Shown here one piece after another: positions 6,001 through 9,000 of a stretch of 16,014 nt of DNA (positions are counted from its first letter, which is position 1; every line of letters starts with the position of its first letter). The stretch is taken from UHGV virus genome UHGV-0355397; one strand, 5' to 3'. Origin of the DNA: a virus. Position numbers: made by a program.

Positions 6001-9000
6001 CCTTTTTTAGTATCCAACAGTCTGAACTGCCCCTGACCCAGATGAAGATGATTGAAGTTCCATGGTGTAATAACCATTAAGTGGCTCACCTTCCCAATCA
6101 AGGTTAATGCGTAATACATGGCCATATTTGGTTGCATTTGACTGGGCGATAAACCCTCCAGGCTTATCTATATCTCTCTGTGGCATCCCAGAATATACCT
6201 GATTTGCAGTATATGCCTTATCAACAGCAGGAGCGCCAATAGAGGCGGTAATTTTAGGCCACGTTCCGGAGCTGTGCAGAACATCTACAGCATACCCGGT
6301 AAGCCCGGTTGATGTTCTCCTGATCAAACATTCAATATACCCACTCCCATGAGATCCGCCAATCGACTTGATAATCAGTTTTGCAGTACCGCAATCCCAT
6401 GGATTTAAAGTCTGATCCCAACATTCAGCCTTTAGGCCGCTAGGCATAGGAAAATCCACGCTGGTTAACACTGCCTCACCTGGCCATACTCCTCCCACAA
6501 CTATTGGACTCGGTATCCTGACACTCAATGTTTCTAAATATCCTCTTCCCCATCCATTATTTGTTTGTCTGGCAAGGTGCTCGTAAATTGGCCTTATTGT
6601 CAAAGCCTGAATAAACGCTGGCTTGGATGCTGACGCATCTGCTGCGTTATAAATACTGATAGTTTTCCATCCCCTACCAATCAGCGTACCAATACGCTTT
6701 TGCAAGGCATCAGAGTGATTATTAGATCCACGATTTCGTGCTACAGTAACAGTGCTCTGAATTGCGTTATAGTTTGTTTGCACAAAACTATTTTGCTCGG
6801 CGAAAGCATAGTATGAAACCCCTATAGAGGGAGGGACCTCCTGTGGTTCAGAGAAGCAAAATGACAAATTAGAGTCATCCAGCCAGCTACCAACAACATC
6901 AACTTCTGCTGCCTCTGCATCAAGATAGAAACTGTATGACGTTCTAACATATTTTCCAGCATCAAACCCACCAATGATGCCTTGAAGCGTATATGTCTCG
7001 TAACCAAATCCCATTGTTACATTGTCAAAAGCATCAAAAAAACCAATCTGATCGCTCTGTTTGTATGGCCATACCGTTATTTCTGTAGATACTGGTCTAT
7101 AAAACGGAAGCATTCCTCCGGCCATCATCATTGAACCAATTGCTTCAGCTATTCGTTGATATCCGACAGAGTTGAAGTGAATTGGATCTGATGCGATAGA
7201 ACCATATGGGATATTGTATGGTATTTCATTTGCTTCGATATATGCACAACCATATACATGAGCTAAATTTCTGATTTCCTGCCCCCAAATTTGGAACTGT
7301 TGAATATTACCATGCTGCTCATTACCACCTGCAACTGGCTGAAGAATAATAACCCCCATCCCCCAATCAATGAATCTACGAATGAACTTCTCCATATACG
7401 TTAAATACACGTCTATCGTGGTTGATGTAGAGTCATTTATCGCATACATAATAATTGCAACATCACAATTAGGATTATCCTGCCATGCTAAATATTCAAA
7501 TCCTTGTTGTGCTGTCTGCCCGGATACTGCTCTAGTGATACTTGTTACATTCCCACCGGTACAGATAGAAAGGTATCTTGCGAGCCTTTCTGGATAGGTT
7601 ACATTAGCACGACGCGTTAACCCTGTTCCGTTTGCATCTGTTGAGTTAGGATCCCAACCAAAAGTCTCACTATCTCCCTGACAAAGGATCGATAATCCAG
7701 ACTTTTTACGAAGATTGAAGTGAGCCTTGGTAAGAGCCTGAATATTTCTGTTTCTATAATCAGCGCTATCTGATGCCAAAGTAGCGTTGCCAAGATTTGT
7801 AATGTGCTCTTGAACAGTCTTCCCATCATCAGTTCCGATTAATAAAGATCCTCCTGATCCAGACAGTTCCTGTCGCAGTTGATCTGGATCATATTTAATT
7901 ACATTAGGGTAATAAAATTGCAAACCACCAACAGCATCATACACCGCCATCGAATGGCCTTTCACAGTAACAAACTTGGCAATCTGTCCGTTATATACAG
8001 GGTAACCAGCAGCGTTAATGATGATTGGTTGCGAAACAGGAACGTGAGAACCATCCTCATTATCCACATAAACCTGAATCTGGTTTTCAGGATTTACAGG
8101 GTCAGTGTCAATTTTACCGATATAAATTTTGCCATTGGCAACCGCTTTAAAAGAACGCGCCATAGTGAAAAGTTGCGAAGGCATCGATACGATCACATTG
8201 GCTGTAATGTCTGTCATTTAATTTGCTCCAGATACAAGGAATCGCCGCAGAGTGGCTACGGTTGGTGTTTGTTGCATACCGAAACGGTACGATTGTTGAT
8301 TTGTACAGTAGGTTTTACGATGCCATTCCACCCAACTGGTGAGGCATCAAGGATGTACAGCAAATACGACGAGGCGCAGTTTCACTTGAGACTTCCGCAT
8401 GAACTTCACGCGAAAATTAAGCAGCGTGCGAAGATGAATAACAGGTCGCTGAACTCAGAGATAATTGCAGCGATTGAAGAATCATTGGCTAAACAAAGCT
8501 CTGCATCCGGTTACATTGACGATGCAGAGCGTATGGCAGAACAACAATCCGATATGGTAAAGAAAATTGTCTTTGATACGTTCAGAGATTTATATAAAAA
8601 AGACAGCAACTAACCATCCGTGTCTTTCCGTTACTTCTGGTTATCATCACTGTTCATCCAGTACATGATGCCTAGCCTTGATATGGTTTTCTTATCTGAT
8701 TCTGGAAGTGAGTTGTAAAACGAGCGCCAAGCAGAAGAGCGTCTTACAGTTGTATCAACGATGCTTTCTGGTGCTTGTTTTACTGCCAGCCTTGCTGCTT
8801 TCTGGAATTCTGGTGAGCTAATTAGCTTTTCTGCAGATTCAATTGATTCAGCGCCGCCCATCGCCCTGATTTTGCTGGCGACTTTTGCCCCAATTTCTGA
8901 CCCAGCAACAGCACCTACTGCACTGAACGGTCCTGACACAGTTGAACCAACCGCAGTGCCAATGCGTTGGGCATGGTTAGCAACAAATTCATTTGCCACA

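Follow-up and report, generated by a model that had tools for sequence, protein, structure and literature searches.

The DNA analysed here, referred to below as the window, is a 16,014-nt stretch of the UHGV virus genome UHGV-0355397. The element under study is a tailspike gene on its minus strand, together with a membrane acyltransferase gene of the AT3 family that converges on it. The tailspike gene is a single open reading frame (ORF) encoding 736 amino acids (aa), with the ATG at 8215-8217, the stop codon at 6007-6009 and a GGAG ribosome-binding site 8 nt upstream of the ATG. The original prediction had given this interval without a strand; the ORF proved to be real in the ORF list and on translation, and the sub-coordinates given for the enzymatic part (7138-7695) fit the minus-strand reading. 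The gene is located at the end of a P22-like late operon, after the ejection-protein genes, as is found for P22-type tailspikes, with Pfam matches in the same-strand genes upstream to P22_gp7, Inj_translocase (gp20-like) and an SLT-containing homologue in the gp16 position. It encodes the tailspike, that is, the receptor-binding and receptor-modifying protein, of a temperate P22/Sf6/HK620-like podophage (coliphage). The RefSeq/PGAP name of a 99.2%-identical gene in E. coli 23CRST047/049 is 'SGNH/GDSL hydrolase family protein'.

The first 113 residues of the protein were recognized by Pfam as a head-binding domain of the P22 gp9 type (Head_binding, PF09008, E=1.1e-63, 213 bits vs. a cut-off of 24). 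Moreover, residues 1-118 matched the N-terminal domains of Sf6 gp14 and P22 gp9 in a sequence search of the PDB, and the Foldseek alignments to classical head-binding domains showed 69-84% identity, which together bear out the head-binding module that had been placed at the N-terminus. Further along the protein, a profile search, named in advance as a check for an SGNH domain, found Lipase_GDSL_2 (PF13472) at residues 181-355, covering profile positions 3-178 of 178, with a score above the curated cut-off (E=8.7e-11, 43.1 bits vs. 32.9), while Lipase_GDSL (PF00657) barely exceeded its own (24.0 bits vs. 23.6). All four SGNH blocks were located by script at the residues that had been named beforehand (Table 1). 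Among 41 homologues sharing 33-81% identity with the query, the invariant columns included G181, D182, S183, T185, G233, N261, D262, D344 and H347. The Ser, Gly, Asn and DxxH blocks of the SGNH/GDSL superfamily are all present, as judged from the motifs, their invariance and the full-length PF13472 match, and these domain matches are far beyond chance. Homology and invariance point to an esterase-active SGNH domain with a predicted Ser183-His347-Asp344 triad and a Gly233/Asn261 oxyanion hole. Some receptor-binding proteins keep enzyme folds without activity, and the activity of the window spike is a prediction from homology and invariance. However, a catalytically dead or vestigial SGNH domain, which would leave the spike as a lectin-like adhesin, is very improbable, given that the five predicted catalytic and oxyanion residues are invariant despite identities down to 33%, that the SGNH domain is the best conserved of the receptor-binding part, and that the homologous spikes of phages B2 and Moo19 are active.

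An AlphaFold2 monomer model was built on the 41 homologues, with a mean predicted local distance difference test (pLDDT) score of 82.9 and a predicted template modelling score (pTM) of 0.74. From the N-terminus onwards, it comprised the beta-rich head-binding domain (aa 1-113), a hinge of low confidence, a linker, a long helix, an alpha/beta/alpha domain and two beta-sandwiches. The pattern of the central domain is that of the three-layer alpha/beta/alpha flavodoxin-like fold, with pLDDT mostly above 90 over residues 175-366, and Foldseek gave a probability of 1.0 to Axe2, AlAXEase, TAP and other SGNH esterases, acetyl-xylan esterases such as Axe2 appearing at E~1e-7. The C-terminal 368 residues resemble carbohydrate-binding modules (CBMs), including some fused to other carbohydrate O-acetylesterases, and the modelled distal beta-sandwich part presumably recognises a glycan. 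Residues L118, G123 and A124 of the linker are nearly invariant in the homologues. No beta-helix was found by Pfam or in the AlphaFold2 model, and the P22 and Sf6 structures matched residues 1-118 only. The alpha/beta/alpha domain and the beta-sandwiches appear where a beta-helix glycosidase is usual, in agreement with the replacement by an SGNH esterase that had been proposed, and the best structural matches were B2, Moo19 and SFP21A. A spike that is a lipase or phospholipase targeting lipids of the outer membrane, or that is bifunctional through a glycosidase hidden in its C-terminal part, was rated the least probable of all the readings; lipases do belong to the GDSL Pfam families, and, in a 2026 preprint, the epsilon15 tailspike is described as having a protruding esterase domain in addition to sites that bind the O-antigen.

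Table 1. Coordinates of the tailspike gene, its domains and predicted functional residues, and of the adjoining features in the window
Feature	Residues (aa)	Position (nt)	Strand	Basis
Tailspike gene, 736 aa	1-736	6007-8217	-	ORF list, translation, PHROG tail spike families
P22 gp9-type head-binding (tail-hub docking) domain, ending in YDPDQ113	1-113	7879-8217	-	Pfam, PDB matches, 67-spike alignment
YDPDQ motif	109-113	7879-7893	-	Script
Linker (16-letter motif) and long neck helix (aa 135-170)	114-172	7702-7878	-	AlphaFold2 secondary structure
SGNH/GDSL esterase domain	173-368	7114-7701	-	PF13472 and PF00657, invariance, pLDDT, Foldseek
GDSET (block I)	181-185	7663-7677	-	Script
SGQ (block II)	232-234	7516-7524	-	Script
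AINDS (block III)	259-263	7429-7443	-	Script
DPIH (block V)	344-347	7177-7188	-	Script
Predicted nucleophile	S183	7669-7671	-	Invariant in 41 homologues
Predicted oxyanion residue	G233	7519-7521	-	Invariant in 41 homologues
Predicted oxyanion residue	N261	7435-7437	-	Invariant in 41 homologues
Predicted acid/base residue	D344	7186-7188	-	Invariant in 41 homologues
Predicted acid/base residue	H347	7177-7179	-	Invariant in 41 homologues
Two beta-sandwich domains (aa ~369-548 and ~549-736), CBM-like fold	369-736	6010-7113	-	AlphaFold2 model, structural matches
AT3-family membrane acyltransferase, 387 aa, convergent with the tailspike gene		4820-5983	+	PF01757 (E=2e-23), motifs, co-occurrence
GC-rich hairpin AAAGGGGC-TTGC-GCCCCTTT		5986-6005	.	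Terminator scan; fills the 23-nt gap between the convergent stop codons

In the PDB sequence search, residues ~97-725 of the window spike matched the spike gp48 of Shigella phage B2 (9d84, E=8.7e-96; Foldseek E=7e-61), the SFP21A tail fibre gp09 (9lna, E=2.1e-87; Foldseek template modelling (TM) score 0.86) and gp82 of Shigella phage Moo19 (9d80/9d81, E=4.5e-83; Foldseek TM score 0.87 for 9d81). The alignments to these three proteins begin at residues 97-113, and the linker and neck are common to esterase spikes with other N-terminal adaptors. The spikes of B2 and Moo19 form homotrimers and, when purified, showed esterase activity on 4-nitrophenyl acetate (PMC11654681), and, by analogy with their structures, the window spike is presumably homotrimeric as well. 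Furthermore, a double gtr/oacD mutant lacking both the glucosylation of rhamnose (Rha) I and the O-acetylation of N-acetylglucosamine was infected by neither B2 nor Moo19, while the authors of that study were unable to obtain the single oacD knockout (PMC11654681).

The end of the head-binding domain coincides with a sharp change in conservation. In an IMG/VR set of 67 distinct head-binding tailspikes, nearly all positions up to Q113 showed 94-100% identity to the window spike, with eight scattered exceptions, and past this residue the identity fell to 61, 49, 49, 25% and lower. At the DNA level, megablast comparisons with CUS-3, HK620, Sf6, N7 and others, plus about 1,100 E. coli genomes, showed that the genes of other P22-like tailspikes resemble this one over no more than its first ~340-365 nt, up to window position ~7867-7880; in the phage records, only the N-terminal ~340 nt were found by megablast, the remainder being recovered by protein-level searches. 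Moreover, the identities of the two parts were uncoupled. Clusters P0006 and P0007 shared 93% identity in the head-binding domain vs. 50% in the SGNH domain and 32-37% in the C-terminal domains, while clusters P0004 and P0005 had an unrelated PF18668 N-terminus and yet 78-79% identity in the SGNH domain and 72-76% in the C-terminal domains. The receptor-binding module was also found on the N-termini of 826-832-aa fibres and on N4-like adaptors, and within it the SGNH domain was the best conserved and the distal domains the most variable. Because conservation collapses right after YDPDQ113 and the identities of the head-binding and receptor-binding parts are uncoupled, the domain shuffling that had been proposed at this junction was supported, and, from sequence comparison, the protein is a natural mosaic in which a module of residues ~114-736, carried elsewhere by T7-like, N4-like and PF18668-type adaptors, is joined at YDPDQ. 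The esterase-type design is rare, since only one spike of this type was seen among the 80 IMG/VR head-binding spikes closest to that of the window and the gene was present in only 2 of the 5,426 complete E. coli genomes.

Taking sequence, model and analogy together, the window protein is probably a P22-docked SGNH esterase spike that would strip O-acetyl groups from a surface polysaccharide and leave its backbone uncut. The N-terminal 113 residues would dock the presumably trimeric spike on the tail hub, as in P22, the CBM-like distal domains would bind an O-acetylated host surface polysaccharide, most probably the O-antigen, and the predicted Ser183/His347/Asp344 triad would remove its O-acetyl groups without depolymerising the chain. 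Repeated cycles of binding and deacetylation could carry the virion down to the outer membrane, by analogy with G7C (PMC10743462), and deacetylation would replace the endoglycosidase cutting of P22, Sf6 and HK620. Several points weigh against this proposal. The nearest homologues, B2 and Moo19, were assayed on an artificial substrate only, the resemblance to G7C gp63.1 is at the fold level only (11% identity, query TM score 0.43), and no NCBIfam model was found for the tailspike. Furthermore, with copies at 80% identity in Yersinia and Cronobacter, the target need not be strictly an E. coli O-antigen.

The distribution across genera also bears on the possibility that an active acetyl-esterase acts not on the O-antigen but on some other acetylated glycan of the cell surface, be it the capsule, the enterobacterial common antigen or colanic acid. 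The presence of ~80%-identical spikes in E. coli, Yersinia enterocolitica and Cronobacter dublinensis would fit an Enterobacterales-wide glycan, and Vi-phage spikes deacetylate capsule (PMC5380687). In addition, SGNH receptor-binding proteins are reported to be prevalent and esterase-active in Klebsiella prophages, where they are linked to capsule types (PMC13123978). However, the closest characterised relatives (B2, Moo19, the S. Anatum phage c341 and G7C) all act on or depend on the O-antigen, the slot beside P22-like tailspikes normally holds O-antigen conversion genes (gtr, oac, AT3), and the distal domains are the most variable ones, as expected for serotype-specific recognition. Another glycan is considered an unlikely target, and deacetylation of the O-antigen is preferred. 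The enterobacterial common antigen was considered as a target from the cross-genus distribution, and no support for it was found beyond that distribution.

The convergent acyltransferase carries the AT3 motifs R-X10-H (R15-H26) and FFMISG (75-80), the motifs R-X10-H and FFxISG being marks of active AT3 family members. In NCBIfam, a far sub-threshold match to MdoC was the only one found, so neither a WecH nor an Oac equivalog could be assigned, and in the phage records no AT3 relative was found except a 26%-identical Halomonas phage gene. The enzyme most plausibly O-acetylates the O-antigen of the lysogen, with a conversion or exclusion function; such O-acetylation against glycosidase spikes is known from Sf6 Oac and BTP1 OafB (PMC9558356). 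The hairpin between the convergent stop codons is likely the shared terminator of the tailspike and AT3 genes, and bidirectional terminators are annotated at the corresponding place in phage g341c. An IS256-family insertion element was also observed at 3321-4635, between the integrase and AT3 genes and 184 bp upstream of the AT3 start. It has a Mutator-type transposase at 3355-4563 (minus strand), imperfect terminal inverted repeats and an 8-bp flanking duplication GTAATTTC (3313-3320 and 4636-4643), and E. coli 23CRST047 lacks it in a region that is otherwise 99.4% identical. This insertion may alter the expression of the acyltransferase.

The two genes form a convergent unit of ~3.5 kb, the tailspike-ACYLTRANSFERASE cassette (window 4708-8262; loci L001, L003-L007, L017 and L018). 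Among the complete E. coli genomes, the AT3 gene was found in the same 2 of 5,426 strains as the tailspike gene and in no others. Single colinear blocks over both genes were found in Y. enterocolitica (window 4708-8231, 73.7%) and C. dublinensis (window 4827-8229, 70.7%), whose tailspike proteins were 80-81% identical to the window spike and whose AT3 proteins were 85.5% and 70% identical, respectively. In E. coli 23CRST047, the block 4636-8262 was 99.4% identical, while its flanks were 96.5% identical or non-homologous, and therefore both genes move together between backbones. Within window positions 4600-8200, the G+C content was lower in the cassette (36-40% in the acyltransferase gene and 39-46% in the tailspike gene) than in the neighbouring ejection-protein genes (46-55%), which is consistent with a separate origin or horizontal exchange. 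In Y. enterocolitica (L003-L005), the cassette was located beside host genes in what appears to be a heavily deleted prophage remnant, comprising an integrase, a few early genes and at most a 220-aa gp16 fragment, followed by the tailspike and AT3 genes. The Y. enterocolitica tailspike was indexed in 47 blocks of the collection, 24 contigs with it were read, and the pattern suggests that the remnant is fixed in the lineage, perhaps retained for the acyltransferase.

More diverged esterase spikes were followed by other acetyltransferases, including AT3 proteins of various lineages, an AT3-SGNH fusion (g341c) and one AlgX-type system. The last was an AlgX-like (PF16822) acetylation protein encoded after the esterase spike of locus L042 (6094-7266). 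In locus L032 (5871-7680), the AT3 gene was broken by a DDE transposase, the copy in the sister locus L033 being intact. Small stand-alone GDSL proteins were observed beside an AT3-SGNH fusion (L021) and beside a 346-aa AT3 (L070), and the latter pairing might represent a split OafA-like system. To count these associations, IMG/VR contigs were used instead of a scan of one genome per species, which returned 4 loci only, with dereplication at 70% C-terminal identity and acetyltransferase genes counted within 2.6 kb downstream. Such a gene was found in 10 of 19 temperate esterase-type clusters vs. 7 of 40 clusters of other head-binding tailspikes. With the AlgX case counted and two purely lytic clusters excluded, Fisher's test gave p~0.004 (10/19 vs. 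6/40), and with AT3 only and all 21 clusters p~0.03 (9/21 vs. 6/40). A hexapeptide acetyltransferase in the control locus L142 was found after both tests, and its inclusion (10/19 vs. 7/40) gives an estimated p≈0.01. It should be considered that the sample is small, that the two sets have different host ranges, that many contigs end at prophage borders, and that the AT3 detector was built from esterase-linked sequences, with Pfam spot-checks only. The enrichment beside esterase-type spikes is suggestive, not established.

It is conceivable, although held with somewhat less than even confidence, that the tailspike and AT3 genes co-evolve as an 'eraser/writer' cassette whose products share one host glycan as their target and which is exchanged as a unit between phage backbones and genera. 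The virion enzyme would strip O-acetyl groups for entry, and the prophage enzyme would re-pattern the O-acetylation of the lysogen surface, so as to block superinfection or to adjust the receptor. This possibility is partly favoured because of the strict co-occurrence in E. coli, the colinear blocks in Yersinia and Cronobacter, the non-homologous acetyltransferases beside diverged spikes and the 10/19 vs. 7/40 count.

Further observations were made on the genes around the cassette. A Mnt-like repressor gene with Arc and Repressor_Mnt Pfam domains (~8353-8613, plus strand) lies between the gp16-position gene and the tailspike gene, divergent from the latter and alone, with no arc or ant gene beside it. 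The gap between it and the start of the tailspike gene is only ~135 bp, so that transcription from a promoter under Mnt control might run straight into the latter. A 244-aa ORF on the plus strand (7879-8613) was rejected as a gene, as it is mostly antisense to the tailspike gene and has Pfam support only in its 3′ part, which corresponds to the Mnt-like gene. The product of the gp16-position gene (8631-11399, minus strand) has 922 residues, with an SLT lytic transglycosylase domain at the N-terminus, and the gene is largely non-homologous in DNA to its counterpart in strain 23CRST047, which codes for a 613-aa protein of the P22-gp16 type; the gp16 position is a further mosaic breakpoint adjoining the cassette. 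The window is in the vegetative order, Sf6/HK620-like, with DUF551, ASCH-like and excisionase-like early genes followed by an IntS-type integrase gene (1862-3052), all contiguous. From 1722 onwards, the window is homologous to E. coli prophages integrated at tRNA-Arg/yfdC, and the attP core should therefore lie near 1700-1860; the window itself contains no tRNA gene.

Tailspikes decide which strains a phage infects, and those of the esterase type respond to O-acetylation, a chemical decoration, in addition to the sugar backbone. They are relevant to serotype-specific phage typing, to host range in phage therapy and to the way in which O-acetylation shapes phage pressure. The recurrent pairing with an acetyltransferase is the one lead worth following, that is, whether prophages write and erase the same surface polysaccharide mark.

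Regarding known systems, the window spike shares with the P22, Sf6 and HK620 tailspikes a head-binding domain that is 69-84% identical, the same gene position and the same YDPDQ junction, but these carry a right-handed parallel beta-helix endoglycosidase, which is absent from the window spike. In contrast, the entire receptor-binding part (linker, neck, SGNH domain and both beta-sandwiches) is colinear with those of B2, Moo19 and SFP21A, at 29-31% identity in structural alignments, while their N-terminal adaptors are those of lytic N4-like (Schitoviridae) or T7-like virions and not P22 head-binding domains. Moreover, B2 gp48 requires a partner, gp49. G7C gp63.1 (4qnl) is similar in the concept of an SGNH esterase spike and in its domain logic (Foldseek E=2e-14), but it belongs to a branched N4-like fibre system, and no phmmer match to it was obtained at E≤1 in the PDB sequence search, which leaves the window spike outside its close family. 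It is the sole spike found to be described with a defined chemistry on its natural substrate and the best-studied O-antigen deacetylase among those found; it deacetylates the O-polysaccharide with the backbone uncut, and this activity is essential for infection (PMC10743462).

The same architecture was found in Salmonella phages. A tblastn search of 50,697 phage records identified the spikes of g341c and NM-3, both with head-binding and SGNH domains, at 41-42% identity over residues 1-601. The former, a Lederbergvirus of S. Anatum, is presumably the c341 of the older literature. According to a review (PMC5380687), which cites Iwashita & Kanegasaki (J Biol Chem 1976), base-plate parts of S. Anatum phage c341 deacetylate the O-antigen, the chain remaining unbroken; g341c is not mentioned in the epsilon34 genome paper. 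The likeness of g341c extends to the genomic slot, in which gp7/gp20/gp16 ejection genes are followed by the tailspike gene, a terminator, a convergent O-antigen acetyltransferase gene and then the integrase gene. However, g341c gp14 (41% identity) has 792 residues and does not align with residues ~602-736 of the window spike, and its acetyltransferase is a 640-aa AT3-SGNH fusion that is BLAST-unrelated to the 387-aa AT3 of the window. In a search of 5.8 billion proteins, ~30 clusters among the best 120 combined PF09008 with PF13472, and they came from E. coli, Salmonella, Citrobacter, Cronobacter, Yersinia and Proteus. The family of the receptor-binding module is modest: of 1.84 billion cluster representatives at 50% identity, 277 matched at E≤1e-3 and 46 at E≤1e-30. 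With the same design in g341c and in these ~30 clusters, the novelty implied by the original prediction was overstated; no new question is opened by a design already known from g341c and from lytic Shigella phages, to which the window gene adds a rare E. coli example.

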